A stretch of DNA of 64,000 nucleotides from Ignavibacteriales bacterium (GTDB taxonomy: Bacteria; Bacteroidota; Ignavibacteria; Ignavibacteriales; Melioribacteraceae), in the NCBI GenBank assembly GCA_020061355.1, contig JAGUYK010000025.1, forward strand, positions 47,815 through 111,814, in the 5' to 3' direction. Positions 1,665-42,330 of this stretch are shown one piece after another (positions within the stretch are counted from its first letter, which is position 1; each line of letters opens with the position of its first letter). The position numbers and the translations under genes are program-made. The notes beneath the pieces were generated by a model, which had not been told where the DNA came from, did not search any database, and saw only the letters and a list, made by a program, of their open reading frames with translations.

Positions 1665-1709
1665 CACCTAAAGGATGTAGTCCCTTTTTCATCCCTTTGA
1701 CCGATTGAA
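1665..1709 (+). promoter_or_regulatory. conserved upstream element, copy 1
   Basis: CACCTAAAGGATGTAGTCCCTTTTTCATCCCTTTGACCGATTGAA, 65 nt upstream of ATG 1774. Perfect direct repeat TCCCTTT-TTCA-TCCCTTT. Ends in the -35-like TTGAAT. Confidence 0.8.
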
Positions 1710-1773
1710 TTACACCATACCTTCTTCATATCTTCTTTCAGATTTAAGAAACAAATATCTAGAAGGGATTCTT

Positions 1774-3039
1774 ATGAATATTGATACAATTAATTCAACA
1801 AGTGTATTGAGAAGATGTCTGCGCTTCATAGTATTGATGTTGGTAGTTATTTTGATGTTGTCTTCCGTCGCGTATTCTCAACCATATACTAACCCTACAA
1901 CGGTTGACTTAAAAACTGCTGCCAATTTTAGAATTCTGGCTGGAAGCGCGGTTACAATTAACGCCGGCTGTACAGTTACCGGGGATGTTGGGGTGAGCCC
2001 GGGTACTGGGATGACCGTAGCCGGAATAGTGAATGGAAATATTCATACAACGGATGATGTCGCAAGTACAGCCCAAAGCGATTTAACTGCAGCTTATACC
2101 GACGCCGCTCAACGAACAGCTGATGCCACGTTGGACGTAGAACTTGGTGGAAAAACCTTAGGATGTGGAGTTTATAATTCTGGAACTTTTACGATAAACG
2201 GAGTGCTCACACTAAGTGGTACGGCTAGTGATATTTTCATCTTCCAGTCAGCTGCCACACTTATCACGGGAACGACATGCATTGTGACCCTACTTGGCGG
2301 TGCCGTGTGGTCCAACGTCTTTTGGCAAGTCGGCAGTTCAGCAACTATTGAAGGAGACTTCAAGGGAACTATCCTCGCTTTAACAGCTATTACGCAAAAT
2401 GCCGGTGCATCATCTGTTTTAACCGGTAGAGCATTGGCGCGGAATGGTGCTGTCACAGTAAGTGGCGCTGAGGTATTGCCGGTGGAACTGACCTCTTTTA
2501 CAGCAGAGTTAAAAAACAATTCGGTAGAATTATATTGGACCACAGCCACAGAAATAAACAACTATGGATTCAATGTAGAATTGAAAATTGAGAATGGAGA
2601 ATGGAACAAGATTGGATTTGTTCAAGGACATGGTAACAGCAATTCACCAAAAGAATATTCATTTACAGATTCACCTTTTGGTGGTACGAAATTCAAATAT
2701 CGTCTAAAACAAATAGATTTTGATGGAGCTTATGAGTATTCTGATGAAATTGAAGTCAACCTAAATCCGCCATCAAAACTTACTCTTGTTCAAAATTATC
2801 CAAATCCATTCAATCCAACAACAATCATTTCATTTGAAATTCCTGTGAAATCAAATGTTGTAATTAAAGTTTATAATGTGATTGGAAGCGAGATTGCAGA
2901 TTTACTGAACGAAGAAAAACTTCCGGGTAGACATCAAGTTGAATTTAATGCGTCGTATTTGCCATCGGGAATTTATTTCTACTCTATCAATGCGGGTGAA
3001 CTCAAACCAATTATGAAAAAGATGATTCTTTTGAAATAA
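1774..3039 (+). CDS. DUF3494 (ice-binding-like fold) secreted protein with T9SS C-terminal sorting domain
   Basis: Start moved to ATG 1774 (MNIDT..., signal peptide ending SSVAYSQ) because TTG 1705 lies inside the conserved element. DUF3494 hallmarks: LKTAANFRILAGSAVT, GDVGVSPGT, TAAYTDAA, DIFIFQ, NVFWQVGSSATI, TGRALARNGAVTV. C-terminal NYPNPFNPTT...GIYFY...KKMILLK is a type-A T9SS CTD. Confidence 0.85.
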   Translation: MNIDTINSTSVLRRCLRFIVLMLVVILMLSSVAYSQPYTNPTTVDLKTAANFRILAGSAVTINAGCTVTGDVGVSPGTGMTVAGIVNGNIHTTDDVASTAQSDLTAAYTDAAQRTADATLDVELGGKTLGCGVYNSGTFTINGVLTLSGTASDIFIFQSAATLITGTTCIVTLLGGAVWSNVFWQVGSSATIEGDFKGTILALTAITQNAGASSVLTGRALARNGAVTVSGAEVLPVELTSFTAELKNNSVELYWTTATEINNYGFNVELKIENGEWNKIGFVQGHGNSNSPKEYSFTDSPFGGTKFKYRLKQIDFDGAYEYSDEIEVNLNPPSKLTLVQNYPNPFNPTTIISFEIPVKSNVVIKVYNVIGSEIADLLNEEKLPGRHQVEFNASYLPSGIYFYSINAGELKPIMKKMILLK

Positions 3040-3181
3040 TATTAAATAAGCATAGTGCGTCTCTGTCATTATTTAGTTTTAACGAACTGTCAGCAAATAA
3101 TAAATCTAAATTAATGTAGTGTCTTATCATATAAAGCCTGGCACTGCGATTTTTACTTCCGAGAGATTAAATTATCACGCA

Positions 3182-3895
3182 ATGACTGACAAAGAAAATA
3201 TATCCCGAAGGGACAGATTTCTGGAAGCAAAAAACAGAATCGATTTTATCTTAAGCGCTGCTATCTTAATAGTCGCCTTTCCCTTTATGTTGTTGATATC
3301 TATTCTATTAATGGTAATCTTGAAATCATTTCCGCTGATAATCCAAAAGCGGGGTATAACTGTAGAGAACCAGGTCTTTAACATTTACAAGTTTAAAACC
3401 ATCGGGAATCCATCCCTTCGGAACAGGATTAATCCCTATAACCAGTTAAGCAGTGAAAACATTCTTTTCAAACCGGGCTTATCTCAATACGTACCGGCTT
3501 TCTGCAAATGGCTTAGAAAGACCGGATTAGATGAGTTACCTCAGATCTTTAACGTGCTGAAAGGTGAAATGAGTTTAGTCGGTCCCCGCCCTTTAACTAT
3601 TAGCGACCTTGAAGTGCTGAAGAATAAACATCCTCATTATTATCATGATCGCAACTTAATTACATTGAAACCGGGAATTACAGGTATGTGGCAAGTCTTC
3701 GGCAACAGAAACGAAGGAATAGAAAATTTGATTGCTCTTGATCTTTACTACTGTCAGCAGACATCACTTCAGCTTGATTTACAGATTTTACTAAGTACAA
3801 TTCTATTAGTCTCCAGTGGAAAGCACTCCGATGCTATTTTCCCGTGTATCTCTTATAATAAAGAATGGAACGCCTTAAGCGATACAAATTCATAA
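3182..3895 (+). CDS. sugar transferase (polyprenyl-phosphate glycosyl-1-phosphate transferase, WbaP/EpsL-type domain)
   Basis: One TM helix, then LDELPQIFNVLKGEMSLVGPRPL, typical of the bacterial sugar transferase family. ATG 3182 preferred over GTG 3119. Confidence 0.8.
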   Translation: MTDKENISRRDRFLEAKNRIDFILSAAILIVAFPFMLLISILLMVILKSFPLIIQKRGITVENQVFNIYKFKTIGNPSLRNRINPYNQLSSENILFKPGLSQYVPAFCKWLRKTGLDELPQIFNVLKGEMSLVGPRPLTISDLEVLKNKHPHYYHDRNLITLKPGITGMWQVFGNRNEGIENLIALDLYYCQQTSLQLDLQILLSTILLVSSGKHSDAIFPCISYNKEWNALSDTNS

Positions 3896-4010
3896 TTAAT
3901 TAATGTGTTAAGAAAAACTTTGACCAGCAGACATTTCCTTCAAATAGAGGCGATAAACAAATTTTTCTTGACAGACACATGGATCCCAATCAGAATACCG
4001 CGGTTAAATT

Positions 4011-4055
4011 CACCTAAAGGATGTAGTCCGTTTTTCATCCCTTTGACCGATTGAA
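4011..4055 (+). promoter_or_regulatory. conserved upstream element, copy 2
   Basis: CACCTAAAGGATGTAGTCCGTTTTTCATCCCTTTGACCGATTGAA. TTGAAC 4051-4056, 17-nt spacer, TATCAT 4074-4079. 114 nt upstream of ATG 4169. Confidence 0.8.
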
Positions 4056-4168
4056 CAATCCTGAATTCCTTCATATCATATTATGGCAATCATATAGCCG
4101 GATCGTGAAATATTTTAAAGTTACTTTGGAAATATGAAATAATTCATTTAAAACAAAGTATAAATAAA

Positions 4169-5734
4169 ATGAAAATTGCATATGCCTTAATTTTTTTGAT
4201 TTTATACTCAACATTTCATGTGGCACAATTTAAACCTACAGTTGAGATAAAAATCTTTCTGGATCAGAATAGATGGCTAAGCAGGCAATTGTCAGTAAAG
4301 GAAATTAATCGTTACTCCGATTTAATTCCTAATAAAATTAAAACATCTTCCTCCTACAATTTTGAAACCTCATCACCGGACACAATGAAATACAACATGT
4401 ATGGTGATTTACGGAACGACAACCCATTTTACAATCCAAAATCTCCGTGGTGGATGGTTGTTTTTAAAGTAACTACGTCCAATCTCTCAACCTTTTTGAT
4501 TGACAGGTATATCTTTAATTATGATTTCTCCACAGTTGGATTTAATTCATGGAAACATAACTTACAAACGGGATGGGAATGGGATGTAGACAGGTTTGGT
4601 ATGAATTATTTTTTTCATCCTTTTTCAGGATCAATGTATTACAACGGAGCGCGTACAAACGGATATAATTTCTTTGAATCTATTCCTTTCACATTTTTGG
4701 GTAGTTTAGAGTGGGAGTATTTCGGAGAAAATACACTCCCATCGTATAATGATATAATCAATACTCCGGTCAACGGCATTTTCCTTGGAGAGATATTTTA
4801 CCGGTTGGGCTCAAATATTCTTGATGATCGCACGACCGGTGCGGATAGATTATTCCGTGAACTGGCTGTTGCAATTCTTTCGCCTACAAGGTTTCTTAGC
4901 AGACTTTTAAGCGGGGATATCTCGAGATCAGTCCCTGAGGAAGTATATCAGAAAGAACCGCTTAATGTAACTTTATCTGCCGGGTATCATAAGGTTAATG
5001 AAGGAACAAAAATTGAGAAAGGAACGCATAGTGCTAATTTCAACATTCATCTCGATTACGGCAATCCGTTTGAAAAAAGGTCTCGCAAACCTTATGACTA
5101 TTTTAAAATTAGGACAGATTTTGATTTCGGAGTGGGAAGGAAAATTATTAATACTGTAACCGGCTACGGAATGATATTTGGCAGTAACATTCAAACCGGT
5201 GATCTGGAAATGTTAGCCGGATTTTTTCAACACATGAATTTTTTTGATAATAAAACTTTCGAATTGGGTACCATTGCATTTGGTCCCGGAATTATTTCCA
5301 AGCTGCCGATGAGCAAAGGTTCAAGTCTATATACTAATCTTCATATTAGTTTAGTGCCATTCGCCGGACTCAGTGGTCGATTCGGTCCAGACAATTCTCA
5401 GGTAAGAGATTATAATTACGGGGGCGGTGCGGAAGCGAAGCTTCAGAGTACTTTAAATCTTGGAAAATGGGTAAGCCTTACATTTATTGGTTACTACTGG
5501 TGGTTTCATACCTTTGTTGGAGATGCCGGGAATAATTACGTTGCTTTGATCAGACCGAGAATTGCATTTAATCTTTTTAATAATGTAAGCATCGGTTTTG
5601 AGCATATGGTTTATTACAGCGATAGATATCCTCGTGATTTTCCAAGTGTTCATTCTGTAAGAACCGAACAGAAAATTTTTCTTCAATTATTTATTGAACA
5701 ATTCAAATTCAAGAGATTATATGATGACTTTTAA
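4169..5734 (+). CDS. DUF3943-like secreted/outer-membrane protein
   Basis: Signal-like N-terminus. WEWDVDRFGMNYFFHPFSGSMYYNGARTNGY resembles the DUF3943 core W.D.D.F..N...HP..G..Y...AR. Assigned from memory of the family, not from a search. Confidence 0.5.
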   Translation: MKIAYALIFLILYSTFHVAQFKPTVEIKIFLDQNRWLSRQLSVKEINRYSDLIPNKIKTSSSYNFETSSPDTMKYNMYGDLRNDNPFYNPKSPWWMVVFKVTTSNLSTFLIDRYIFNYDFSTVGFNSWKHNLQTGWEWDVDRFGMNYFFHPFSGSMYYNGARTNGYNFFESIPFTFLGSLEWEYFGENTLPSYNDIINTPVNGIFLGEIFYRLGSNILDDRTTGADRLFRELAVAILSPTRFLSRLLSGDISRSVPEEVYQKEPLNVTLSAGYHKVNEGTKIEKGTHSANFNIHLDYGNPFEKRSRKPYDYFKIRTDFDFGVGRKIINTVTGYGMIFGSNIQTGDLEMLAGFFQHMNFFDNKTFELGTIAFGPGIISKLPMSKGSSLYTNLHISLVPFAGLSGRFGPDNSQVRDYNYGGGAEAKLQSTLNLGKWVSLTFIGYYWWFHTFVGDAGNNYVALIRPRIAFNLFNNVSIGFEHMVYYSDRYPRDFPSVHSVRTEQKIFLQLFIEQFKFKRLYDDF

Positions 5735-5775
5735 TTCCTTTATACTTTATATAAAATTATAGAATGCGTGCAGAC

Positions 5776-6582
5776 ATGAAAAAAACTTTTTTATTACTAC
5801 TCCTTACTATAGTATGCGGTTCTTCGGTCATTGCACAAAATCCTATTATAGAGGATTCCGTACAGCTGAATAAGTATAATTTTACTCAATTTGCATCTGA
5901 GTCATGGAGCTTCATAAAGCGACCGGTTGAATGGGAGGGAAGTGATTGGTTAAAATTAGGCATCATAAGTGCCGGAACATTTTTAATAATGGAAACCGCC
6001 GATCAACCGATTCGAAATGCAGTTTTAAAAGATCAAATACATTCTAAAAGTTTTCCACTTGAATTTGGCAGAATGTGGGGAGAACTATATTCACCAATTC
6101 TGCTCTTTAGCAGTTTTGCTATCCATTCATTGTTAACAGATGACACTGGAACCAGAAAAATTGCCTATGAGATTGCTCAGGCCTCTCTCTATACCGGGGC
6201 AGTTACATATTTATTAAAGGTAGCGATTGGGAGAGCGCGTCCTTATATGAATGAAGGCTCTAACTCTTTTCACCCATTCTCTTCATTCATTACCCAGGAT
6301 TATCACTCACTTCCGGGTGGGCATAGTGTTGCCGCATTTGCTTTATCTACTGTTCTTTCAAGGAACGCTAAACCGGTTTGGTTAAAAATAATAGCTTATA
6401 TACCTGCTGCACTTACCTTTGTTTCCCGGGTTTATCAAGAGAAACACTGGACCTCTGATGATTTCTTAGGTGCCGGACTCGGATATCTTATCGCGACCTG
6501 GGTTGTAGATCAACATGAGAATAATAAATCAATATTAGAAATTTCTTCGGCATTTCCGTTTTCTATGAGGATTGCACTCTAA
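5776..6582 (+). CDS. PAP2-family phosphatase (membrane-associated)
   Basis: Three PAP2 motifs: KVAIGRARPY, LPGGHS, SRVYQEKHWTSDD. ATG 5776 (MKKTFLLLLL...) preferred over ATG 5764. Confidence 0.8.
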   Translation: MKKTFLLLLLTIVCGSSVIAQNPIIEDSVQLNKYNFTQFASESWSFIKRPVEWEGSDWLKLGIISAGTFLIMETADQPIRNAVLKDQIHSKSFPLEFGRMWGELYSPILLFSSFAIHSLLTDDTGTRKIAYEIAQASLYTGAVTYLLKVAIGRARPYMNEGSNSFHPFSSFITQDYHSLPGGHSVAAFALSTVLSRNAKPVWLKIIAYIPAALTFVSRVYQEKHWTSDDFLGAGLGYLIATWVVDQHENNKSILEISSAFPFSMRIAL

Positions 6583-8899: not shown

Positions 8900-9577
8900 A
8901 TGAAGAAAATACTGATACTGCTTATTGAAGATAATAGACTTCTTCGTGATGGTATAGCGACGATGCTCAAGAAAGAGTCTGATATGCATGTTGTTGCTAC
9001 GGTTGGTAATGGCGAAAACATTCTTCTGATGATTGATAAAAACAAGCCGGATATATTACTTCTCGATCTCGGTTTAAGAAGTCAAAACAGTCTACAAATA
9101 GTAAAATTAACAAAGCAGAATTTTCCGGAAACTAAAATAATAGTAATGGATCTTGTACCGCTCCAGGCAGATGTTCTTGAATTTGTGCAGGCGGGAGTTT
9201 CAGGATTCATACTTAAAGATGCAAACGTTGCGGAATTTTATAAAACTATCCGATCAGTTTACAATGGCGAACAGATTTTACCTCCGCATTTAACCGGTTC
9301 GCTTTTTTCTCAAATTGTTGATTATGCAGTCAATGGATTTAAACCGTCTATAGTCGCAGAATCGGTTCGCATGACAAAACGCGAAAGACAGGTAATTGAA
9401 TTAATAGCAGATGGTTCTACAAATAAAGAAATTGCACAAAAACTTCACCTTTCGACCTACACCGTTAAAAGCCACGTTCATAACATACTCGAAAAATTAA
9501 CGTTAAATACACGAGTGCAAATTGCTAAACATGCTCACCTCTCAGATTCTTATAAAACTGATTTAGACACTACCTAA
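8900..9577 (+). CDS. NarL/FixJ-type response regulator (REC + LuxR HTH), paralog 1
   Basis: REC domain (E10-D11, phospho-acceptor D56 in LLLDLGL, K106 in GFILKD). C-terminal LuxR HTH: LTKRERQVIELIADGSTNKEIAQKLHLSTYTVKSHVHNILEKL. Confidence 0.9.
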   Translation: MKKILILLIEDNRLLRDGIATMLKKESDMHVVATVGNGENILLMIDKNKPDILLLDLGLRSQNSLQIVKLTKQNFPETKIIVMDLVPLQADVLEFVQAGVSGFILKDANVAEFYKTIRSVYNGEQILPPHLTGSLFSQIVDYAVNGFKPSIVAESVRMTKRERQVIELIADGSTNKEIAQKLHLSTYTVKSHVHNILEKLTLNTRVQIAKHAHLSDSYKTDLDTT

Positions 9578-9608
9578 TTAATTAACCAACAATAGACTGT
9601 CGTTTACC

Positions 9609-9653
9609 CGTCCAAAAGATGTAGTTCCTTTTTCATCCCTTTGACCGATTGAA
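9609..9653 (+). promoter_or_regulatory. conserved upstream element, copy 3
   Basis: CGTCCAAAAGATGTAGTTCCTTTTTCATCCCTTTGACCGATTGAA, starting 32 nt after the paralog 1 regulator stop codon. TTGAAT 9649-9654, 17-nt spacer, GATAAT 9672-9677. 99 nt upstream of ATG 9752. Confidence 0.85.
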
Positions 9654-9751
9654 TATCTCTTCATAACTGGCGATAATGGAGCCGTAATAAAAAATCTCTT
9701 ATCAAATAAGGGACGGATTTTTTATAAAGTAATAACCGATGGAGGTTCAAG

Positions 9752-10138
9752 ATGACGAATGAAGCAAAAGGAATGGGAAAAGGTCTGTTGATTGGAATTT
9801 TTACCGGCGCTGCTGTCGGATCAATCATTGCACTTCTCTATGCTCCTAAATCCGGTAAAAAGTTGCGCGAGGAAATAAAAACCAAATCACAGGATTTTAC
9901 CGAGGATGCCGAAAAGTATATTTCGAATGCTAAAAGGAAAGCGTCACATTTGATCGAAGATGTAAAAAAAAAGTTCGAATCTTTGGTTACTGAAGCTGAG
10001 GATAATGTAGATGCTATTCTGGATGAATCCGAAAAGGTTCTTAAAAACGCAAAAGACAAAGTTGAAGATTATGTCGAATCCGGTAAAGTAAGTTTAAGAA
10101 AAAAAGCAACCTCGTTAAATTCGCATAGGCGTGAATAA
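9752..10138 (+). CDS. YtxH-domain (general-stress-type) protein
   Basis: N-terminal GLLIGIFTGAAVGSIIALLYAPKSGKKLREEIK is the YtxH signature, followed by a charged helical region. SD GGAGG lies 8 nt upstream. Confidence 0.85.
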   Translation: MTNEAKGMGKGLLIGIFTGAAVGSIIALLYAPKSGKKLREEIKTKSQDFTEDAEKYISNAKRKASHLIEDVKKKFESLVTEAEDNVDAILDESEKVLKNAKDKVEDYVESGKVSLRKKATSLNSHRRE

Positions 10139-10173
10139 AATAGATATATAATTGAAAAGGAAGATTGAATAGA

Positions 10174-10554
10174 ATGACTTTAATTGATGTTTTTGTGATA
10201 GTCTTAATCCTTACGGCTTTCTCACTCTCTATTTTTGTTATTGTATTTTTAAAAAGAATTTACATGCAAGCAGTAACGGTTCAAAAAGATATTCACCGGC
10301 TTGTTGAAAATACAATCCCCGTTATGAGTAATTTAAAAGAGGTTACTGAACGTGCAAACAGGATAGTGACGGGAGTTGAGGGATACTATAATGAAGCTGA
10401 TTGCTTGATTAAAAATGTGCGTGAACGAATTTCAATCCTAACTTCTAATAGAAGATTTCGTTCTGTCGAGCGCCCCGTCAAGTACATAGTCAATAATATA
10501 AGGGCATTGGCAAGCGGCACTTCTGCTTTCTTGAATTCATATAAACATAAGTAA
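10174..10554 (+). CDS. DUF948-like membrane-anchored protein
   Basis: Single N-terminal TM helix then a helical region. This is the usual size and architecture of DUF948 proteins, which often sit next to YtxH genes. ATG 10174 preferred over TTG 10165. Confidence 0.5.
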   Translation: MTLIDVFVIVLILTAFSLSIFVIVFLKRIYMQAVTVQKDIHRLVENTIPVMSNLKEVTERANRIVTGVEGYYNEADCLIKNVRERISILTSNRRFRSVERPVKYIVNNIRALASGTSAFLNSYKHK

Positions 10555-10816
10555 TTTTTGTAATAAGACTTCTAATCACGGTGCGTATCAAAATATTGTA
10601 TCCAAATAGTATGTCTCATATTTTGGGATCGCGTTATTCTTATGCATTCAAATTCCTCATCTTTATCTCTCAAAGTAAAAGCTACTTTCATAACATCCCT
10701 GGATAATTAATATTAAATATTCGCAAGAATATTGCAAAGCACGTGCATCTTTCTAATTCTTTTAAACTGCTATCGATACTTATTTATTAATTGACGAATA
10801 ATTATTTATCGTTAAC

Positions 10817-10860
10817 CTACCCAAAAGAAGTAGTTCCTTTTTCATCCCTTCGATTCATTT
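10817..10860 (+). promoter_or_regulatory. conserved upstream element, copy 4 (3' part divergent)
   Basis: CTACCCAAAAGAAGTAGTTCCTTTTTCATCCCTTCGATTCATTT. Followed by TTTACA-N17-TACCTT, which is homologous to the region after copy 9. 141 nt upstream of ATG 11001. Confidence 0.7.
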
Positions 10861-11000
10861 ACACATTCATAATATCTACTTACCTTATTATGGAATTAAT
10901 ATCGGTCACTATTTCAATAACAAGTAGAGATTAATATGAACAAAATTGCAAGAGCAATTATTCGAACAGAAAATCTTTAATAAACTAAAAGGAGATTCAC

Positions 11001-12092
11001 ATGAAAACCTATACAAAAGATCCAACAAATGTATTAAGTAGATTTAAGCGCTTACTCGGTGCTATGCTTATTATTGCTTTGATGATGCCTGCCATAGCCA
11101 TCTCTCAATCGTCACCGTCAAGAGTGAATCTTGGAACGGCTGGGGATTTCGTAATTCTATCCAAAACAGGAATCTCAACAACGGGAGCTTCTCAAATTAC
11201 CGGAGATATTGGCGTTAGTCCTGCTGCAGCAACATACTTAACCGGATTTGGATTAATCATGGATGCCTCAGGTACGTACTCCACATCATCATTAATTACC
11301 GGTAAAGCATATGCAGCCGATTATACTTCCCCTACACCAACTAAAATGACTACAGCTGTGGGCGATATGGAAACCGCTTACACCGACGCGGCAGGACGTA
11401 CAAATCCTAATTTCACTGAACTGTATAGTGGAGATATTACAGGCAAAACCCTGACTCCCGGTCTTTACAAGTGGGGTACCGGAATACTAATTTCTGCAGC
11501 CGGTGTTACAATCTCTGGCACTTCAAGCGATATCTGGATTTTCCAGATTGCACAAAATCTGACCGTAGATAACGGTGCTATTGTAACATTAAGCGGCGGT
11601 GCTCAAGCTTCCAACATTTTCTGGCAAGTTGCCGGACAGGTTAATCTTGGAACATCTGCTGCCATGAAAGGAATTATTTTGTGTCAGACTGCGATTGCGA
11701 TGAATACCGGAGCAACACTCGACGGCAGGGCACTGGCGCAGACCGCAGTTACTTTAAACGCTAATGCTGTTTCTAAACCTGCAATTGCGACCTCCGTTAA
11801 GAATACTATTGTACCTCAAGCATTCGCACTATTCCAGAACTACCCTAATCCATTCAATCCATCAACCACGATTCAATACAATCTTAGTAAAGCTGCGAAT
11901 GTTTCTTTAAAGGTCTATAATGTACTTGGTAATGAAGTTGCCACACTCGTGAGAAGTAATCAGGAAGCAGGCAGCTATAGTGTACCTTTTGGCAATAGTA
12001 GAGAAACATTAGATCTTTCAAGCGGTGTATATTTCTATCGTCTTGAAGCCGGATCCTATGTCGCCACAAAGAAGTTCATTTTAATGAAGTAG
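11001..12092 (+). CDS. DUF3494 (ice-binding-like fold) secreted protein with T9SS C-terminal sorting domain
   Basis: LGTAGDFVILSKTGIS, GDIGVSPAA, ETAYTDAAGR, DIWIFQIAQ, NIFWQVAGQV, DGRALAQTAVTL. C-terminal NYPNPFNPSTT...GVYFYRLEAG...KKFILMK. SD AAGGAG upstream. Confidence 0.85.
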   Translation: MKTYTKDPTNVLSRFKRLLGAMLIIALMMPAIAISQSSPSRVNLGTAGDFVILSKTGISTTGASQITGDIGVSPAAATYLTGFGLIMDASGTYSTSSLITGKAYAADYTSPTPTKMTTAVGDMETAYTDAAGRTNPNFTELYSGDITGKTLTPGLYKWGTGILISAAGVTISGTSSDIWIFQIAQNLTVDNGAIVTLSGGAQASNIFWQVAGQVNLGTSAAMKGIILCQTAIAMNTGATLDGRALAQTAVTLNANAVSKPAIATSVKNTIVPQAFALFQNYPNPFNPSTTIQYNLSKAANVSLKVYNVLGNEVATLVRSNQEAGSYSVPFGNSRETLDLSSGVYFYRLEAGSYVATKKFILMK

Positions 12093-12127
12093 TTTTTTTG
12101 GATGAAGTTAAACAAATCAAAAATTTC

Positions 12128-12160: not shown

Positions 12161-12246
12161 CAGAAATAATCAAGTTCTATAAATAATTGTAAGCATTAAA
12201 TAAAAAGGATGATAGAGATTTAATAATTAACTAACGAATAATTGCC

Positions 12247-12290
12247 CACCCCAAAAGATGTAATCCCTTTTTCATCCTTTTGGACTATGG
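12247..12290 (+). promoter_or_regulatory. conserved upstream element, copy 5 (3' part divergent)
   Basis: CACCCCAAAAGATGTAATCCCTTTTTCATCCTTTTGGACTATGG, 188 nt upstream of ATG 12478. No clean -35/-10 found downstream. Confidence 0.65.
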
Positions 12291-12477
12291 TTTTATTATT
12301 AAGATGTTTTTACAATTCGATTGGATAAAAAAGACAAAACAGAAAAAGTTTCTCTAAGGGGTTGTGCTATTTTTTAACAGAGGAATGTTGGTATCAATCA
12401 ATATTAGGCATGACAGAACTTAATAAAAGTAGAAAAAAAATAAAGGAATATTTGTATCATCTCTGGAGAAAATACTT

Positions 12478-14199
12478 ATGAAAAAAAACATATTAAACTT
12501 TCAGCGAAAAATACTTCCTAAGGCTCCCACAAGTATTCAAGGATTGGACGAAATAACAGGCGGTGGATTACCGAAAGGGAGACCAACTCTTGTATGCGGA
12601 GGTGCAGGCTGCGGAAAAACCCTATTTGCAATGGAGTTCCTCGTTCGCGGTGCAACTCTGTACAATGAACCCGGCGTATATATTTCGTTCGAAGAAACTG
12701 AAAAAGAACTGACAGCTAACGTTGCTTCGTTGGGATTCGATTTAAATGACCTTGTAAAACGAAAAAAGATTTGGCTTGAACACGTTCATATTGAACGCGG
12801 TGAAATTGAAAAGAGCGGGGAATATGACTTGAAAGGATTGTTTGTCCGTATCCATCACGCAATTGAAAACATAAAGGCAAAGCGTTTAGTACTGGATACT
12901 ATTGAATCACTTTTTTCAGCTCTTCCGAACTCAACTATTGTTCGCACAGAACTGCGGCGGTTATTCGGCTGGCTGAAAAAGAAAGGTGTTACGGCAATAA
13001 TCACCGGAGAACGGGGGAATGAAACTTTAACACGTCAGGGTTTGGAAGAGTATGTTTCCGATTGTGTTATACTTTTGGATCATCGAGTGAGCGATCAATC
13101 ATCCATACGACGATTACGAATTGTTAAATACCGTGGGTCAATGCACGGAACAAATGAATATCCTTTCTTAATTGATGAGGATGGTTTTTCTATATTACCT
13201 GTAACCTCGCTTGGCTTGAATCATATTTCATCTAAAGAAAGAATTTCCACCGGCATTCCGCGTCTTGATACTATGCTTTCCGGAAAAGGTTACTATCGTG
13301 GCAGTACAGTGCTTGTTTCAGGTACCGCTGGTACAGGTAAAACAAGTCTTGCAGCGCAATTTGTTCAAGCTGCATGTAAACGTGGTGAACGTGTTCTTTA
13401 TTTTGCTTTCGAAGAATCCCCGAGTCAATTTATGCGCAACATGGCTTCGATCGGAATTCATCTGGAACCGTGGGTGAAAAAAGGATTACTCCACTTTCAC
13501 GCAACACGACCAACACTGCATGGATTGGAACATCATTTAACAACTTCTATTAAATTAATTAATGAAGTTAAACCGCAAATAGTTGTTCTCGATCCTATTG
13601 ATGCATTCGTGATGGGAGGGAACCAGACTGAAGTTAAAATAATGCTGCTGCGCCTTGTGGACTTTTTAAAGATGAGAAATATCACTGCATTCTTTGCAAG
13701 CTTAACTAACTCAGGAGAGAACCAGGAGCTAACGGATATGTCAATATCCTCACTAATAGATACATGGCTGCTATTGCGTGATATCGAATTTGGCGGTGAA
13801 CGAAACAGGGGATTGTATATTCTTAAATCGCGGGGTATGTCGCATTCCAATCAAATCCGTGAGTTTATACTTACCGACAGTGGAATTGATCTGCTTGATG
13901 TCTATGTTGGTCCCGAAGGCGTTCTTACCGGCTCGGCTCGATTGGCGCAAGAAGCGAAAAACTATGAAGAACAATTGCTGCATCAACAAGACATTGAACG
14001 GAAACAACTCGAATTAGAACTTAAACGTGCGGCTGTAGAAGCTCATATTGCAGTATTACAGTCTGAATTCAAATCAGAAGAATCAGATACACTCAAGATT
14101 ATCGAGATGGAAAAAGCAAAAACCGAAAGGGTTGTACAGGTTCAGAAAAAAATGGCGGAGAGTAGAAAAGCGGATAAACTCGTGAAAAAACCGGCATAA
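12478..14199 (+). CDS. kaiC: KaiC-family double RecA-like ATPase with C-terminal coiled-coil extension
   Basis: Two KaiC domains. Walker A motifs GGAGCGKT and GTAGTGKT. Catalytic EE pairs YISFEE and YFAFEE. SISSLIDTWLLL aligns with the S. elongatus KaiC phospho-site segment HISTITDTIILL. About 80 extra C-terminal residues are heptad-like and charged (EAKNYEEQLLHQQDIERKQLELELKRAAVEAHIAVLQSEF...). Confidence 0.85.
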   Translation: MKKNILNFQRKILPKAPTSIQGLDEITGGGLPKGRPTLVCGGAGCGKTLFAMEFLVRGATLYNEPGVYISFEETEKELTANVASLGFDLNDLVKRKKIWLEHVHIERGEIEKSGEYDLKGLFVRIHHAIENIKAKRLVLDTIESLFSALPNSTIVRTELRRLFGWLKKKGVTAIITGERGNETLTRQGLEEYVSDCVILLDHRVSDQSSIRRLRIVKYRGSMHGTNEYPFLIDEDGFSILPVTSLGLNHISSKERISTGIPRLDTMLSGKGYYRGSTVLVSGTAGTGKTSLAAQFVQAACKRGERVLYFAFEESPSQFMRNMASIGIHLEPWVKKGLLHFHATRPTLHGLEHHLTTSIKLINEVKPQIVVLDPIDAFVMGGNQTEVKIMLLRLVDFLKMRNITAFFASLTNSGENQELTDMSISSLIDTWLLLRDIEFGGERNRGLYILKSRGMSHSNQIREFILTDSGIDLLDVYVGPEGVLTGSARLAQEAKNYEEQLLHQQDIERKQLELELKRAAVEAHIAVLQSEFKSEESDTLKIIEMEKAKTERVVQVQKKMAESRKADKLVKKPA

Positions 14200-14233: not shown

Positions 14234-15085
14234 ATGGCTAAAATGGAAAAAATAATTTTTATGCAAACTAATTATGAAAAGCAGGAAGAAAAAGCCAAAC
14301 AGGATAATTCTTCAATTATTATTTCTGATTCTGTATTTAGGAAATTCTTTATTGAAGTCTATTCAATTACAATTTTTACTCTGCGATTTTTCAAAGAAGT
14401 ATTGAAACCGCCGTATGAATTCAATGAACTTATGAAGCAATCTTTTCTAATCGGTTACAAATCACTTCCTTTGATAGTTATTACCGGATTTATAATTGGA
14501 CTTGTACTTACTATTCAAACAAGACCGACTTTGGCAAAATTTGGTGCAGAATCGTGGTTGCCTGCAATGGTGGCGGTTTCAATTATAAGGGAAATAGGAC
14601 CGGTTATTACTGCGTTAATCTTTGCTGGAAAAGTCGGATCGGGAATCGGGGCAGAATTGGCATCAATGAATGTAACAGAACAAATTGATGCTATGCAGGT
14701 ATCTGATACAAATCCATTTAAATATCTTGTTGTAACCAGGGTGGTTTCTGCAACATTGATTCTTCCGCTATTAGTAATTTTTGCAGATGCTGTTGGTTTA
14801 TTAGGTTCTTATGTAGGGGTTAACATAAAAGGAAATGTCAGCGCTTACTTTTATTTTTCACAGGTATTTCAAAGCCTCGAATTTGCTGATCTGTTCCCTG
14901 CCATCATCAAAACATTTTTCTTCGGATTCGCCATCGGACTAATAGGAAGTTATAAAGGATATAATTCAAACAAAGGTACTGAAGGTGTGGGAAAAGCGGC
15001 AAACTCAGCCGTTGTATTCGCATCTTTAATGGTTTTTTTAATTGATATGATAGCAGTACAAATTACAAGTTTGCTTCAAAACTAA
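14234..15085 (+). CDS. mlaE: MlaE-family ABC transporter permease
   Basis: Polytopic permease with REIGPVITALIFAGKVGSGIGAELASMNVTEQIDAM, typical of the MlaE/YrbE family. The start could be a downstream Met. Confidence 0.8.
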   Translation: MAKMEKIIFMQTNYEKQEEKAKQDNSSIIISDSVFRKFFIEVYSITIFTLRFFKEVLKPPYEFNELMKQSFLIGYKSLPLIVITGFIIGLVLTIQTRPTLAKFGAESWLPAMVAVSIIREIGPVITALIFAGKVGSGIGAELASMNVTEQIDAMQVSDTNPFKYLVVTRVVSATLILPLLVIFADAVGLLGSYVGVNIKGNVSAYFYFSQVFQSLEFADLFPAIIKTFFFGFAIGLIGSYKGYNSNKGTEGVGKAANSAVVFASLMVFLIDMIAVQITSLLQN

Positions 15086-15102
15086 ATTGAGCAGTTGGAA
15101 GA

Positions 15103-15882
15103 ATGATAGAAAACGGAACTTCAATAAAAATTGAAAATGATAATAAACAGAACGGTACTGTTATTGTTGAGATGCAGCATCTTAAAAAATCTTTTGGGAA
15201 CAACCATGTTCTGAGGGATATTAATCTGGTTGTTCATAAAGGAGAAAACCTGGTAATACTCGGACAATCAGGAACAGGTAAATCAGTCCTTATTAAATGT
15301 ATTGTTGGATTGGTCGAAATTGACGAAGGCAAACTTATGATATTCGGGCAGGATGTTTCTGAATTGAAGAATAAAGAATTAGTTAAGATATACAAAAAGA
15401 TCGGTTTCCTTTTCCAAAGCGGGGCACTATATGATTCCATGTCGGTAAGAGAAAATCTTGAATTCCCGCTAAGGAGACAAATGCGATCAATGAAAAAAAA
15501 AGAAATGGACGTTCTTATTAAAGAAGCATTGGAAGATGTTGGACTTGAAGAAGCAATTGATCTGTCTCCCTCGGAGCTTTCAGGTGGAATGCGCAAAAGA
15601 TTAGGTCTAGCCCGAACCTTGATTTTAAAACCCGAGATTATGCTTTATGACGAACCTACAACTGGACTGGATCCTATAACATCAAAAGAAATAAGTAATC
15701 TCATAATGGAAGTACAAAAAAAATATAACACTTCTTCAATCATAATCACTCATGATATTGAATGCACCAAACTTACGGCAAATAGAATCATAGTGATTAA
15801 GGATGGTGTATGTGCAGCAGAAGGGTCGTATGAAGATCTTGAGAAATCGAGTGATCCATGGATAAGATCGTTTTTTGAATAA
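15103..15882 (+). CDS. mlaF: ABC transporter ATP-binding protein (MlaF-like)
   Basis: Walker A GQSGTGKS, signature LSGGMRKR, Walker B IMLYDEPTTGLD. Confidence 0.85.
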   Translation: MIENGTSIKIENDNKQNGTVIVEMQHLKKSFGNNHVLRDINLVVHKGENLVILGQSGTGKSVLIKCIVGLVEIDEGKLMIFGQDVSELKNKELVKIYKKIGFLFQSGALYDSMSVRENLEFPLRRQMRSMKKKEMDVLIKEALEDVGLEEAIDLSPSELSGGMRKRLGLARTLILKPEIMLYDEPTTGLDPITSKEISNLIMEVQKKYNTSSIIITHDIECTKLTANRIIVIKDGVCAAEGSYEDLEKSSDPWIRSFFE

Positions 15883-15912
15883 AACATAAGACAATAATTA
15901 AGAGTAAATAAA

Positions 15913-16779: not shown

Positions 16780-16814
16780 ATTATGAAAATTTTTCATATC
16801 ACCTGGAAAGAGAG

Positions 16815-16857
16815 CTCCAAATGATGTAGTCCCTTTTTCATCCTTTCGGTCTATTTC
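16815..16857 (+). promoter_or_regulatory. conserved upstream element, copy 6 (3' part divergent)
   Basis: CTCCAAATGATGTAGTCCCTTTTTCATCCTTTCGGTCTATTTC, 99 nt upstream of ATG 16956. Confidence 0.65.
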
Positions 16858-16955
16858 TTAGGCGCAAGATATTAAATAACTTCTTACAGGTTAATTGCCT
16901 TAATGGTTATCAAATAATTAACCAATATATAATCAATTAAATAAAAGGAGCAGTA

Positions 16956-24044: not shown

Positions 24045-24152
24045 CTTAGATGTAATCATCACTACTATTAATCGGATTCAAAAAGAGGTTTACTGTTTTT
24101 TTGAATAACGGAAATTTAATATCAAGTCACAACAAATTAATAGGAGGATTCA

Positions 24153-25493: not shown

Positions 25494-25679
25494 ATGAATT
25501 CGTTAACAATTAAGGGCAACTGGAATGAACTCGCTGGAAAACTTAAACAACAATTCGCAAATCTAACGGATGATGATTTACTTTTTAAAGAGGGTAAAGA
25601 AGAAGAACTGTTGGGAAGATTACAAACCAAACTTGGAAAAACCAAGGAAGAAATACACAAGATAATTTCGAAGTTATAA
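25494..25679 (+). CDS. CsbD-family stress-response protein
   Basis: 61 aa. [47 protein letters not shown] is the classical CsbD pattern. SD AAGGAG upstream. Confidence 0.85.
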
Positions 25680-27569: not shown

Positions 27570-27761
27570 ATGTCATTAATAACATTAGTAATTGTTCTGG
27601 TTATTGTCGGGGTGATTCTCTGGCTGATTAACAGCTATATCCCGATGCAGTCTACAATTAAGAAAATCCTAAATGCAGTAGTAATTATTGTAGTAGTTCT
27701 CTGGTTATTGAGTGTTTTCGGTGTTATAGATAGTCTCGATACAATTCGTATAGGTCGGTAA
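27570..27761 (+). CDS. small two-TM membrane protein
   Basis: 63 aa, two hydrophobic helices. SD AAGGAG upstream. Confidence 0.55.
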   Translation: MSLITLVIVLVIVGVILWLINSYIPMQSTIKKILNAVVIIVVVLWLLSVFGVIDSLDTIRIGR

Positions 27762-38514: not shown

Positions 38515-38666
38515 TCGGAATATTTAATTATAAAAATTAATAGTCGGTTAGAATTTTATAGGGAATTGCATCTCTAAACTGATGGTCAAAGAAAGTGAGT
38601 GATCGATTCATAATATAGGAGATTCATTATTACAGGATTGGATCTTTACTGTAAAGAAGCAATTTG

Positions 38667-38710
38667 TCACCCAAAAGAAGTAGTCCCATTTTCATTCCTT
38701 TGACCGATGG
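38667..38710 (+). promoter_or_regulatory. conserved upstream element, copy 10 (most divergent)
   Basis: TCACCCAAAAGAAGTAGTCCCATTTTCATTCCTTTGACCGATGG, 139 nt upstream of ATG 38849. Confidence 0.6.
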
Positions 38711-38848
38711 TTTTGTCTTGAGACTTATTGTAGTTTGTTGTGCATTTGAAAATGTGAGTGTAAAGAATTTATTAACGCATGGACAACTGTAAATACTAAA
38801 ATATATTTAACAGATTTGAGTGATTTAATTAAAAAGGAGTGTTTTACA

Positions 38849-39664
38849 ATGAGATTCATAAAAGAAAATTTAATTCGTTTGGTTGTCTTTATAAGTTTTT
38901 CTACGGCAGTATTATTCATTCTTGGTTGCTCTGATTCAACTTCACCTGAAAACGGGCAGGGACAAATAAAGATAACAATGGTTGATTCCCCCGCTGCTTA
39001 TGATAAGGTAAATATTGTTGTTACAAGAGTTGAAGTTCATAAAGCCGGTTCTGATTCAAGTAGCGGTTGGGTGGTAATAAACAATAACACAGCAACTTAT
39101 GATTTGCTTACATTAAGAAATGGTGCAAGTGTTGTTTTAGGTGATAACTCACTTGATGTCGGGCATTATACACAGATAAGATTAATACTTGGCACGGGCA
39201 GTAATGTTGTAGTGAACGGTACAGTTTTTACTCTTGATGTATCAAGCGCAGCACAGACAGGTATAAAATTAAATCGAGAATTTGAAATCCAGGAAGGACT
39301 TATTTACGAATTACTTCTTGATTTTGATGCCCAGCGTTCAATAGTGCTTACCGGAAACGGGCAGTACAAGCTGAAACCTGTTATTAAAGTTGTACCTACG
39401 ATAATCTCCGGTACCATTTCGGGTAAGATAAATCCGTTAAACGCTGGAGCTTCTGTTTACATAATGAGCGGCACAGATACGGTGAGTAGTACATTAGCAG
39501 AAACAACAAGCGGGTCATTTAAGTTGATGGCATTATTAGCCGGGACATATTCTGTAAAAGTATCTCCAGGCAATCTAATTTATAATGATACAGCAATTGC
39601 TAATGTGGTTGTTACAGCAAAACAAAATACAGATTTAGGAACAATCAGCTTAAGTCTTAAATAA
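38849..39664 (+). CDS. DUF4382-like lipoprotein with C-terminal carboxypeptidase-regulatory-like beta domain
   Basis: Lipobox ILGCSD. ITMVDSPAAYDKVNIVVTRVEVH...GWVVIN...YDLLTLRNG...LDVGHYTQIRLILG...TGIKLN.EFEI...YELLLDFDA.RSIV..GNGQYKLKPVIKV is the DUF4382 pattern as I recall it. Confidence 0.6.
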   Translation: MRFIKENLIRLVVFISFSTAVLFILGCSDSTSPENGQGQIKITMVDSPAAYDKVNIVVTRVEVHKAGSDSSSGWVVINNNTATYDLLTLRNGASVVLGDNSLDVGHYTQIRLILGTGSNVVVNGTVFTLDVSSAAQTGIKLNREFEIQEGLIYELLLDFDAQRSIVLTGNGQYKLKPVIKVVPTIISGTISGKINPLNAGASVYIMSGTDTVSSTLAETTSGSFKLMALLAGTYSVKVSPGNLIYNDTAIANVVVTAKQNTDLGTISLSLK

Positions 39665-39695
39665 ATATAGAAATCACAAAAAAGGAGTAATTGTT

Positions 39696-40193: not shown

Positions 40194-40322
40194 GAGAAAT
40201 TAATTATGATTAGTTGATCTGAAAAAGTAAAACTAATTGTCATAATAACGTAGCTGATTTTTTGAAAGCAATGGATTTGAAGAGAAATAATGAAGTGTTC
40301 TAAATTATTAAAGGAGAAACAG

Positions 40323-40994
40323 ATGAAAACAATTAAAGGCATAATTTTAATTTCAGCATTAGCCGGATCGATTTTTATTTACGGTTGCAGCGCAAGTAAT
40401 GCTGTAAAAGGAGGGGTGATAGGCGGAGTTGGCGGTGGTGTGGTTGGCGGAGTAATCGGGCATTATGCTGGCAGCACGGTACTTGGCGCAATAATAGGTG
40501 CGGCTGTTGGCGGTACCGCCGGAGTTTTAATTGGTAACTATATGGATAAGCAGGCAGAAGAAATGAATAATGATATTGCCGGCGCAAAGATAGAAAGAGT
40601 TGGTGAAGGTATAAAAATTACATTCGATTCAGGAATATTATTTGCAACCAATTCCTCAACGCTTGAATATCAAGCTAAAACAAACATCGCTAAGCTTGCT
40701 ACTATTCTAAACAAATATCCCGATACGAATATTCTGGTGACAGGTCATACGGATTGGGATGGTACCGAGGAATATAATCAAGCCTTATCCGAAAGAAGAG
40801 CTAAAGCAGTTTCGGATTATACTGAAATGCAGGGTGTTACTTCCTCAAGATTTTCAGTAATTGGACTTGGTGAAAATGAACCCGTGGCTTCAAATGATTC
40901 ACCTGAGGGAAAGCGTATGAATAGACGTGTTGAGATTGCTGTCTTCGCAAATGAAAAACTTAAAGAGGCTGCCGAGAAAGGCGGACTGAAATAG
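40323..40994 (+). CDS. OmpA-family lipoprotein with glycine-zipper N-terminal segment
   Basis: ATG 40323 with SD AAGGAG. Lipobox IYGCSA. Gly-zipper GGVIGGVGGGVVGGVIGHYAG...GAAVGGTAG. OmpA-like domain FATNSSTLEYQAKTNIAKLA...VTGHTDWDGTEEYNQALSERRAKAVSDY...NRRVEIAV. Confidence 0.85.
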   Translation: MKTIKGIILISALAGSIFIYGCSASNAVKGGVIGGVGGGVVGGVIGHYAGSTVLGAIIGAAVGGTAGVLIGNYMDKQAEEMNNDIAGAKIERVGEGIKITFDSGILFATNSSTLEYQAKTNIAKLATILNKYPDTNILVTGHTDWDGTEEYNQALSERRAKAVSDYTEMQGVTSSRFSVIGLGENEPVASNDSPEGKRMNRRVEIAVFANEKLKEAAEKGGLK

Positions 40995-41057
40995 TCACCT
41001 AATTAGAAATATGAATATATTTCTTTAAGATCGGTTATGTGAATTAAAACAGTATTA

Positions 41058-41113
41058 GCCCCGGCATTCAATCTTCGCCTTGCTAAACCTTGTCGAAGTT
41101 GAAATGCCAGGGC
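41058..41113. terminator. long imperfect hairpin between convergent genes (possible bidirectional terminator)
   Basis: GCCCCGGCATTCAATCTTCG-loop(16)-CGAAGTTGAAATGCCAGGGC, with 1-nt bulges. Lies between the + gene ending at 40994 and the - gene ending at 41177. Confidence 0.4.
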
Positions 41114-41176
41114 AATTTATTATTCTTATAACCCATTCCTTTACCGGGAAATTTGGACAAGTAATAATATTCCCGT

Positions 41177-42061
41177 TTACGGGTTTAATATTTTTTCTTT
41201 CGATGGCATTTCTTTGATATACAAATCACGCTGAGGGTATGGAATCTCCACGCCGGTTTCTTTAAATTTTTTGAATATTTCAAAATAGAGCTGACTCTTC
41301 AGCACAGCGGGTTTATCGGAATATGTGTTAGTCCAAACACTAAGATTAAACATCAACGCGCTATCTCCATATTCTTTGAATAAAACTGCCGGCTTTGGCT
41401 CACTCAATACATCGGGATTCTCTTCAGCTATTGCGAGTAAAATATTTTTAATATTCTCGGGATCTTCTTTATAAGAAACGCCGACAGGAAAGCTAAACCG
41501 TACAGTTTTATCAGTATGGCTCCAATTAATTACCGTAGAAGAAATGAATTCCGAATTTGGGACAATAATAGAGATATTATCGTTCGTTAAAACTGTCGAT
41601 GCACGCATCGAAATCTTTGTTACATCACCTGTTACTTTACCAATTTCAATTCTATCACCGACTTTTATCGGTCTTTCAAATAGAATTATTAATCCGCTGA
41701 CAAAATTATTTGTAACATTTTGCAAACCGAAACCAATACCAATACCGAGAGCACCAAGAAGAACTGTAAGACTGCTCAAATTGATACCAACGGTTTGGAT
41801 AATAATTATAAATCCAATAGTCAGAATCACATATCGGATAATTGTACTTACTGCAACACGAACACCTAAATCAATTTTACTCTTGGCTAAAACCTTGTAA
41901 ACAATAATTTTGTTTAGCTTTTTTATAATATAATAAAGCACAGCAATCAGTACTAGAAGATAGCTCAAAGTCCAGAGTGTGATAGTAGATGTGCCCACAG
42001 AGAATACGGGCACACTTAAAAATTTAATAATGCTTTGAAAAAAAGTTTCTATTCCTTTCAT
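41177..42061 (-). CDS. MscS-family mechanosensitive ion channel
   Basis: TM helices followed by LGALGIGIGFGLQNVTNNFVSGLIILFERPIKVGDRIEIG (MscS pore and beta-domain signature). ATG at 42061 is preceded by GGAGG, so it is preferred over TTG 42085. Confidence 0.85.
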   Translation of the reverse strand: MKGIETFFQSIIKFLSVPVFSVGTSTITLWTLSYLLVLIAVLYYIIKKLNKIIVYKVLAKSKIDLGVRVAVSTIIRYVILTIGFIIIIQTVGINLSSLTVLLGALGIGIGFGLQNVTNNFVSGLIILFERPIKVGDRIEIGKVTGDVTKISMRASTVLTNDNISIIVPNSEFISSTVINWSHTDKTVRFSFPVGVSYKEDPENIKNILLAIAEENPDVLSEPKPAVLFKEYGDSALMFNLSVWTNTYSDKPAVLKSQLYFEIFKKFKETGVEIPYPQRDLYIKEMPSKEKILNP

Positions 42062-42286
42062 AATTCCTCCTTCATGGAAATACAAACCAAAATTATTTTT
42101 GTTGCCAAATCATGAAAACCAATATTGTGCAAGTTGCTTTTACTATTTCCGAGCAACTCTCTACTGTTTAAACCTTTTACTTAACTATTTTTCTCTACAA
42201 TAACGGATGCTTCACTATCTTATTGGCGATCTAATGTTCAATAAATAGCTCAAGTTATAATACGGATTCTGTTCGAATTTTTACTC

Positions 42287-42330
42287 ATTCCAAAGATGTA
42301 GTTCCTTTTTCATCCCTTTGCCCGATTGAA
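42287..42330 (+). promoter_or_regulatory. conserved upstream element, copy 11
   Basis: ATTCCAAAGATGTAGTTCCTTTTTCATCCCTTTGCCCGATTGAA. TTGAAA 42326-42331, 17-nt spacer, GATAAT 42349-42354. 100 nt upstream of ATG 42430. Confidence 0.85.

Follow-up and report, generated by a model that had tools for sequence, protein, structure and literature searches.

A conserved upstream block in fixed register with a sigma-70-type promoter precedes putative envelope and stress operons across Ignavibacteriota

The DNA considered here is a 64,000-nucleotide (nt) stretch from an Ignavibacteriales bacterium (GenBank assembly GCA_020061355.1, contig JAGUYK010000025.1, positions 47,815 to 111,814 of the forward strand), hereafter the window, in which an initial annotation made from the letters alone had reported eleven copies of a ~45-nt element ahead of envelope and stress genes. 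A search with the pattern GATGTAGTYCCTTTTTCATCC, allowing ≤3 mismatches, found all of these copies again, with exactly 11 matches in the window, all on the + strand (at 1674, 4020, 9618, 10827, 12257, 16823, 24009, 29314, 29960, 38677, and 42295). Only 0.01 matches were expected by chance from shuffled sequence, so that the density is indeed beyond chance. An nhmmer profile trained on 159 copies and run over the window at E ≤ 10 returned the same 11 copies and none further, including none to the right of 42.4 kb, where none had been seen before. Every copy is intergenic and precedes a + strand open reading frame (ORF) with a Shine-Dalgarno sequence, and the distance from the end of the element to the start codon, first given as 65-190 nt, was measured at ~64-188 nt. 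Because nearly all genes between 1 and 48 kb lie on the + strand, co-orientation inside the window is weak evidence; the rule was accordingly put to the test in further genomes, and it is obeyed there as well.

In each copy, a conserved upstream block stands in fixed register with a full sigma-70-type promoter, and we number these + strand composite promoters 1 to 11. Promoter 1 (1663-1734; block 1663-1704, -35 hexamer TTGAAT 1705-1710, 18-nt spacer, -10 hexamer TATCTT 1729-1734) precedes a DUF3494 gene (1774-3039), followed on the same strand by a sugar transferase gene (3119-3895). Promoter 2 (4009-4079; block 4009-4050, -35 TTGAAC 4051-4056, -10 TATCAT 4074-4079) stands ahead of genes for DUF3943 (4169-5734) and PAP2 (5764-6582) proteins, and promoter 3 (9607-9677; block 9607-9648, -35 TTGAAT, -10 GATAAT 9672-9677) ahead of YtxH (9752-10138) and DUF948 (10165-10554). 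A second DUF3494 gene (11001-12092) is the target of promoter 4 (10816-10886; -35 TTTACA 10858-10863, -10 TACCTT 10881-10886). Behind promoter 5 (12246-12316; weak -35 TGGTTT, -10 TACAAT 12311-12316) lie KaiC (12478-14199) and then MlaE/F/D (14234-16779), and behind promoter 6 (16812-16882; -10 TAACTT 16877-16882) a 142-aa lipoprotein-like ORF (16956-17384) and a C11-like peptidase gene (17427-18554). Promoter 7 (23998-24068; -35 TTGAAC, -10 TACTAT 24063-24068) leads into an array that starts with DUF4398 (24153-24515) and continues on the same strand with DUF4398-OmpA, CsbD (25494-25679), an sll1863-family protein, and PRC. The target of promoter 8 (29303-29373; -35 TTGAAA, weak -10 CAAATT) is a 108-aa lipoprotein (29442-29768), and those of promoter 9 (29949-30019; -35 TTTACT, -10 TACCTT 30014-30019) are a 1507-aa Big_5/DUF3494 protein (30067-34590) and then OmpA (34743-35852). 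Promoter 10 (38666-38736; -10 TAGTTT 38731-38736), which has the most diverged core (3 mismatches), precedes DUF4382 (38816-39664), a 165-aa ORF, and a Gly-zipper OmpA (40290-40994). Finally, promoter 11 (42284-42354; -35 TTGAAA, -10 GATAAT 42349-42354) stands ahead of a B12/radical-SAM/DUF4070 gene (42430-43911) followed by GT4 (44201-46483) and GH130 (46480-47424). Across the eleven, the spacer is 17 nt in ten and 18 nt in one, the -10 hexamer is a full TAnnnT in eight, GATAAT in two, and CAAATT in one, and the predicted leaders measure 33-155 nt. The families assigned to the downstream genes in the initial annotation all agree with Pfam, namely DUF3494/Ice_binding (three proteins), DUF3943, YtxH, DUF948, KaiC, MlaE/F/D, DUF4398, OmpA, CsbD, PRC, DUF4382, radical SAM/DUF4070, GT4, and GH130.

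We then evaluated the anatomy of the promoter across copies. Alignments comprised ~157-245 copies from the window plus 121 loci, nearly all labelled Ignavibacteriota, and the positions given here refer to a set of 157 copies (window plus 117 loci) anchored on the G of GATG. Conservation spans -11 to +36 from this anchor (CTCACCCAAAAGATGTAGTYCCTTTTTCATCCYTTTGnnCGATTGaat), of which the upstream ~42 bp form an asymmetric block (CTCACCCAAAAGATGTAGTYCCTTTTTCATCCYTTTGnnCGA). The TTG of the -35 hexamer, at +31 to +33, is present in 157, 143, and 129 of the 157 copies, position by position; it is followed by a 17-nt spacer conserved at background level only, and then by the -10 positions T+54, A+55, and T+59 (120, 141, and 154 of 157 copies). 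The search pattern included none of these -35 and -10 positions. When offsets were compared, 169 of 225 copies had TAnnnT at +54, while background offsets averaged 7.8 copies and peaked at 16. This geometry, TTGaat at +31 to +36, a 17-nt spacer, and TAnnnT at +54 to +59, is that of a canonical sigma-70-type promoter. There are no insertions or deletions between the block and the -10, and the edges of conservation are sharp, at about -14 and +60, with neither terminal inverted repeats nor target duplications. Purines are enriched at +66 (115/157 copies), and with a start placed near this position, ~7 nt past the -10, the hexamers would occupy -35 to -30 and -12 to -7. Given the fixed register of the block to the -35 and -10, the block then covers about -77 to -36, the region where activators bind.

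On this predicted transcript numbering, conservation is at its highest between about -54 and -33 and extends to -77. The most invariant stretch among diverged copies is TTTTCATCCYTTTGnnCGATTG, with more variation in the upstream half, and T+4/A+5, C+9, T+13, A+17/T+18, C+20, and A+30/T+31 (anchor numbering) are identical in all 86 sequences compared. The block includes a T5 tract at about -55 to -51 and short partial dyads (GATG...CATC, and TTCATC-N9-GATTGAA centred near -41.5). Two weaker signals lie at and beyond the -10 in anchor numbering, i.e., a second, overlapping TAnnnT at +59 in 61 of 225 copies (e.g., window 4079-4094), and weak conservation around the predicted start (T+64, G+66, A+68, and AAA at +72-74). 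This preference over +59 to +74 could represent a discriminator, an initial-transcribed-region preference, or an alternative -10. A generic promoter scan of the window yielded 80 sites versus 69 in shuffles and is uninformative by itself, although promoters 2 and 3 were among the sites.

The dyad in the block could also be taken as the mark of a structured RNA, with the GATG...CATC inverted repeat as the basis of a riboswitch, a small RNA, or a 5' leader. An imperfect inverted repeat, CAAAAGATG-N12-CATCCYTTTG, is present, and 76.7% of cells in this hairpin form standard pairs; however, shuffled partners pair equally well (77.0%), changes on both sides were observed at 2 pairs versus 2.5 expected, and RNAalifold predicts 0 pairs for 86 diverse copies. 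Rfam 15 likewise gave no match at the copies, either at the gathering threshold or at E ≤ 1, and returned only two unrelated weak matches elsewhere in the window. Furthermore, because the fixed -10 lies downstream of the block, the block is absent from the transcript under its control. We thus regard an RNA element as very improbable; with neither covariation nor an Rfam match, the element reads as a DNA-level feature of a promoter.

The element is conserved across the phylum Ignavibacteriota. An exact-pattern scan of one genome per species matched at least 117 contig blocks, almost all labelled Ignavibacteriaceae, Melioribacteraceae, or Ignavibacteriales, and a profile search identified 229-245 strong copies in the matched loci, among the matches listed. 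On public contigs, 138 copies are on the + strand and 96 on the - strand, and the orientation tracks the gene: a same-strand ORF of ≥100 aa starts 62-400 nt downstream of 155 of 206 copies, versus 36 of 206 in a mirrored control. Copies occupy orthologous promoters in many genera, and only 3 of 229 strong copies in other genomes lie inside long ORFs. A few element-bearing contigs carry the labels Zixibacteria, Aminicenantes, Chlorobiaceae, or Bacteroidales (L011, L092, L024, and L016). Since L024 encodes an orthologue of the response regulator RR1 (described below) at 80% identity, mis-binning or outdated labels seem likelier than a wider distribution.

This distribution bears directly on two further candidates, a repeat of selfish or structural nature (a REP, a MITE, or a mobile promoter) and a recombination site of the integron attC kind. 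Such elements would readily account for many near-identical copies that are clustered and co-oriented within islands. The abrupt conservation edges without terminal inverted repeats, together with the orthologous promoter sites across many genera, argue instead for selection on function rather than mobility, and the near-invariance across the phylum points to purifying selection. The scarcity of copies in ORFs and an orientation that follows the gene also differ from the REP- or MITE-like pattern (copies in both orientations or inside genes) that the initial annotation had named as counter-evidence, and no copies were found in the viral contigs searched. Overall, we see hardly any room for a repeat or recombination site of this kind. 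An integron attC, an invertible promoter, and a MITE were each considered as specific candidates and rejected based on the single orientation, the conserved synteny, and the absence of flanking repeats.

Next, we clustered the first downstream ORF of 213 copies across genomes. The most frequent families were DUF3494/Ice_binding (21 copies), OmpA-type porins (14 copies), NarL-type response regulators (13 copies), YtxH (11 copies), CsbD (9 copies), AI-2E transporters (9 copies), and ferritin-like proteins (6 copies). MlaE, KaiC, PAS histidine kinases, BON-domain, SPFH, and M48 peptidase proteins also recur behind the element, as do several small lipoproteins and membrane proteins. Loci fetched via the regulator rather than the motif displayed the same gene islands, and added universal stress proteins (Usp), a ribosome hibernation factor, and the radical-SAM/GT4/GH130 group. 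This gene set resembles a general-stress and envelope regulon, which we consider putative. An envelope/stress regulon behind an element of no named class had been suggested from the window alone; it is supported here as a predicted regulon, and the element can be described more sharply as a predicted sigma-70-type composite promoter.

Three genes of the window encode candidate regulators, all on the + strand. RR1 (8900-9577) is a NarL/FixJ-family response regulator with a REC receiver and a GerE helix-turn-helix (HTH) domain, and a candidate binder of the block; RR2 (23291-23983), its paralogue at 73% identity and likewise a candidate binder, comes after CheBR-PAS and kinase genes; and RR3 (36781-37470) belongs to a second response-regulator orthogroup, with 57% identity to RR1/2 and an identical recognition helix. 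RR1, RR2, and RR3 are hence REC+GerE paralogues in two orthogroups (RR1/2 type and RR3 type), none of which scores above any NCBIfam equivalog cut-off, and the closest solved structures are VraR, NarL, and DevR. The recognition helix, YTVKSH(V/I)HNI(L/M)EKL, and the receiver aspartate are conserved in both orthogroups, and RR3 orthologues share 82-91% identity across families.

Both orthogroups are linked to the element, in different ways. Of 23 loci with RR3-type genes, 16 have the element on the same strand within the 600 nt ahead of the gene, and in 3 of 4 RR3-anchored loci, which were chosen without the motif, it lies upstream of RR3 or the RR3 operon. For RR1/2-type genes, the element follows the gene, 40-60 nt past the aligned end in 26 of 33 loci. 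The stop codon usually lies ~28-32 nt before GATG (41 nt for RR1 and 26 nt for RR2), and this spacing holds whichever gene comes after (YtxH, DUF4398, RR3, or others). In the window, the RR1 stop is 30 nt ahead of the block of promoter 3, and the RR2 stop 15 nt ahead of that of promoter 7. As no terminator fits in such a gap, the regulator transcripts probably read into the next promoter.

Directly upstream of RR2 is a putative sensory module (18837-23252, + strand), composed of a CheB-CheR-PAS fusion (18837-21779) and a PAS histidine kinase (21966-23252). The fusion is 980 aa long, and fusion, kinase, and RR2 are consecutive on the + strand; no chemotaxis receptor or CheA was seen near the fusion. 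Orthologues of these sensor genes are element-driven in several other genomes (e.g., L114, L074, and L053). The CheB-CheR-PAS orthologue in L114 is itself preceded by the element, and the window copy is not. Taken together, the likeliest candidate regulators are the paired NarL-family response-regulator groups, RR1/2 and RR3 type, and the linkage pattern fits, circumstantially, an autoregulated two-component activator.

We therefore favour, with a probability of roughly 0.6, an activator-type composite promoter bound by NarL/FixJ-family regulators and driving dispersed envelope, dormancy, and stress operons. In such a system, a sequence-specific regulator would bind the block at about -77 to -36 and recruit RNA polymerase carrying a short primary-type sigma, which would switch on scattered operons for envelope, dormancy, and stress proteins. 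The PAS histidine kinase and CheB-CheR-PAS module next to them may phosphorylate the RR1/RR2-type and RR3-type regulators, and positive feedback could arise as copies of the element often precede RR3 and the sensor genes. The binding mode might follow that of UhpA at uhpT or DosR at dormancy promoters. As for the inducing condition, gene content points to stationary phase, dormancy, or osmotic, cold, or envelope stress.

Several observations weigh against this activator reading. First, enrichment near the element is expected of any regulon member, which makes the regulator linkage circumstantial, and the assignment of the regulators is drawn from genomic linkage since the block has neither overall symmetry nor 7-2-7 heptamers; a position weight matrix self-comparison revealed no direct or inverted repeat of the block as a whole, and the 7-2-7 heptamer layout typical of NarL sites is missing. 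Second, RR3 of the window has no element copy upstream, so that autoregulation is not universal. The window RR3 starts 312 nt after a small outer-membrane beta-barrel gene (35975-36469), a gap that is 30 nt in L121, and the element was probably lost or bypassed locally. Third, the -35 hexamer is fairly good, and some promoters could therefore fire without an activator. Finally, when a housekeeping promoter consensus was sought in 114 motif-free upstream regions, no sense-strand pattern was enriched.

The quality of the core promoter also invites the opposite sign of control, in which a regulator seated on -77 to -36 and reaching the -35 would act as a repressor and hold competent promoters off until stress. 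The -35 TTGaat and -10 TAnnnT are reasonable by themselves, the block abuts the -35 hexamer, and in Deinococcus a stress regulon is reportedly controlled by a repressor acting on a conserved motif (RDRM/DdrO). However, the block is almost wholly upstream of the -35, whereas repressor sites usually overlap -35 to +20, many -10 hexamers are weak (TACCTT, TAACTT, and CAAATT), as at activator-dependent promoters, and a helical phase fixed relative to the core promoter, as seen here, typifies recruitment. A repressor operator is thus, in our estimation, unlikely.

A similar weighing applies to the idea of an alternative sigma factor devoted to general stress, comparable to SigB, RpoS, or EcfG, that would read the whole element with no separate activator. 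The gene content is suggestive in this regard, as CsbD, YtxH, BON/OsmY-like, ferritin-like, Usp, and hibernation factor proteins resemble alternative-sigma stress regulons, and in L118, L005, and L063 the regulator genes have an RpoD-like sigma gene (285-286 aa) as a neighbour. The anatomy of the promoter points the other way: conservation peaks at about -54 to -33 and reaches -77, past the reach of sigma region 4, and the hexamers and 17-bp spacer are of the group 1/2 sigma type, with a generic TAnnnT as the -10. The L118 sigma is, moreover, 85% identical to a large group named primary sigma or RpoD/SigA by the sources and thus appears to be the primary sigma, which weakens the case for a dedicated stress sigma. 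No extracytoplasmic function (ECF), SigB, or anti-sigma gene was found among the annotated window genes, the element-driven cluster representatives, and the four RR3-anchored loci; for the other ORFs of the 117 loci, the L118 sigma was the sole query. With its signature ahead of the -35 and no dedicated sigma module among the annotated genes, the element falls outside the alternative-sigma promoter class, and we judge a dedicated sigma improbable as its reader.

The RpoD-like sigma genes lie within a few kb of an RR1/RR3 pair (L118, 7356-8213; L005, 4972-5832 on the - strand; L063, 6841-7638 on the - strand) and cover regions 1.2-4, the L118 protein being 285 aa long. The L005 and L063 sigmas are 62-63% identical to the L118 protein and could be paralogues, and the L005 gene is downstream of an element-driven rubrerythrin gene. 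Neighbours of the L118 sigma gave no Pfam match. Other promoter classes were rejected individually. In the case of an ECF-type promoter (GGAAC...CGT), the only GGAAC is on the other strand and would point away from the genes, and for sigma-54 (GG-N10-GC) and Bacteroidetes-type promoters (TTTG/TAnnTTTG) the required positions lack conservation.

The NarL/FixJ-type activator reading can be compared with several known systems. UhpA binds at uhpT over about -80 to -32, and DosR/DevR acts at the dormancy-regulon promoters of Mycobacterium tuberculosis. As in these systems, a GerE-HTH response regulator gene lies near the predicted targets here, and the predicted site is upstream of, and abuts, the -35 of a sigma-70-type promoter. 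Further likenesses are that the candidate regulator would be autoregulated, judging by the linkage of the RR3 type, and that the gene content relates to dormancy and stress (Usp, ferritin-like proteins, and a hibernation factor). The TAGTCCC sub-site may also resemble the DosR half-site, AGTCCC. Unlike at UhpA and DosR promoters, however, the block is a single asymmetric and contiguous ~42 bp unit without a palindrome or 7-2-7 heptamer pair, near-invariant across a phylum, and held in a single fixed register to the -10. In position, linkage, and autoregulation, the element agrees with the NarL-type activator-site class, with binding considered putative.

Other likenesses are more partial. The SigB (Bacillus), RpoS (E. 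coli), and EcfG/PhyR (alphaproteobacterial) regulons share CsbD, YtxH, BON/OsmY-like, ferritin-like, Usp, hibernation factor, and envelope proteins with the gene set described here, as well as one common promoter signature before dozens of scattered operons. Unlike in these regulons, the signature here is upstream of an ordinary -35/-10 and not in the hexamers, and the linked regulators form a two-component system, with no sigma/anti-sigma module among the genes annotated. The radiation/desiccation response motif (RDRM) of Deinococcus, with DdrO/IrrE, is similarly a clade-wide conserved DNA motif marking a stress regulon and discovered through comparative genomics. The RDRM is, however, a 17-bp palindrome that overlaps the core promoter and is bound by a repressor, whereas the element is ~42 bp long, asymmetric, and upstream of the -35. 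Finally, the block overlaps in position with the UP element, the site of the RNA polymerase alpha C-terminal domain at -60 to -40, and includes a T5 tract; unlike UP elements, which are A/T-rich and degenerate, it has invariant G and C and reaches -77.

We found no description of this motif in the searchable literature, and no global stress regulator or promoter signature for Ignavibacteriota, the regulon paper that mentions Ignavibacteria being concerned with CRP/FNR-MalR sites. To our knowledge, the wider Bacteroidota-Chlorobiota group also has no defined general stress response. The composite promoter thus appears undescribed so far, and its length, asymmetry, and near-invariance are unusual for a transcription-factor site, such that it would repay structural study. 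With ~70 bp and a very high information content, it marks a putative stress regulon for an entire, poorly studied phylum, and offers a handle for listing this regulon in Ignavibacteriota genomes and metagenome bins. It can also suggest a stress-related role for DUF3494, DUF3943, DUF4382, DUF4398, and the 142-aa and 108-aa lipoproteins, names testable regulator and sensor candidates, and could serve as an inducible promoter in cultured species. A broader, and distinctly tentative, proposal is that Ignavibacteriota run a general stress and dormancy response without an alternative sigma, through a paralogous NarL-type cascade (RR1/2 and RR3) that would assemble an oriented multi-subunit complex on the long asymmetric site, with input from the CheB-CheR-PAS/PAS-kinase module and perhaps from the KaiC of the regulon. 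If true, such a NarL-type cascade would represent a previously unknown architecture for a phylum-wide stress response.

Several features of the individual window genes complete the description of this locus. The KaiC homologue behind promoter 5 is a double-domain protein of 573 aa with MlaE, MlaF, and MlaD directly after it; neither KaiA nor KaiB was seen, and KaiC is element-driven in at least 6 other loci (including L088, L096, L036, L118, and L120). The 1507-aa protein behind promoter 9 ends in a DUF3494 ice-binding-like domain and also has nine Big_5 Ig-like domains and four InlB-type B-repeats; in their place, the two smaller DUF3494 proteins have sorting domains for type IX secretion. 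The gene for the large protein is closely followed by a sub-threshold Rfam match to sraA at 34543-34640 (30.9 bits versus a gathering threshold of 56, E = 0.6), which probably reflects chance similarity to a terminator-like hairpin. An MscS-type mechanosensitive channel gene (41177-42085), the one clear minus-strand gene in the island, has no element copy. In the array behind promoter 7, CsbD (25494-25679) and a 63-aa membrane protein (27570-27761) are without a copy of their own, whereas elsewhere they have one in 9 and 3 loci, respectively, which indicates that operon boundaries in these islands vary between genomes.

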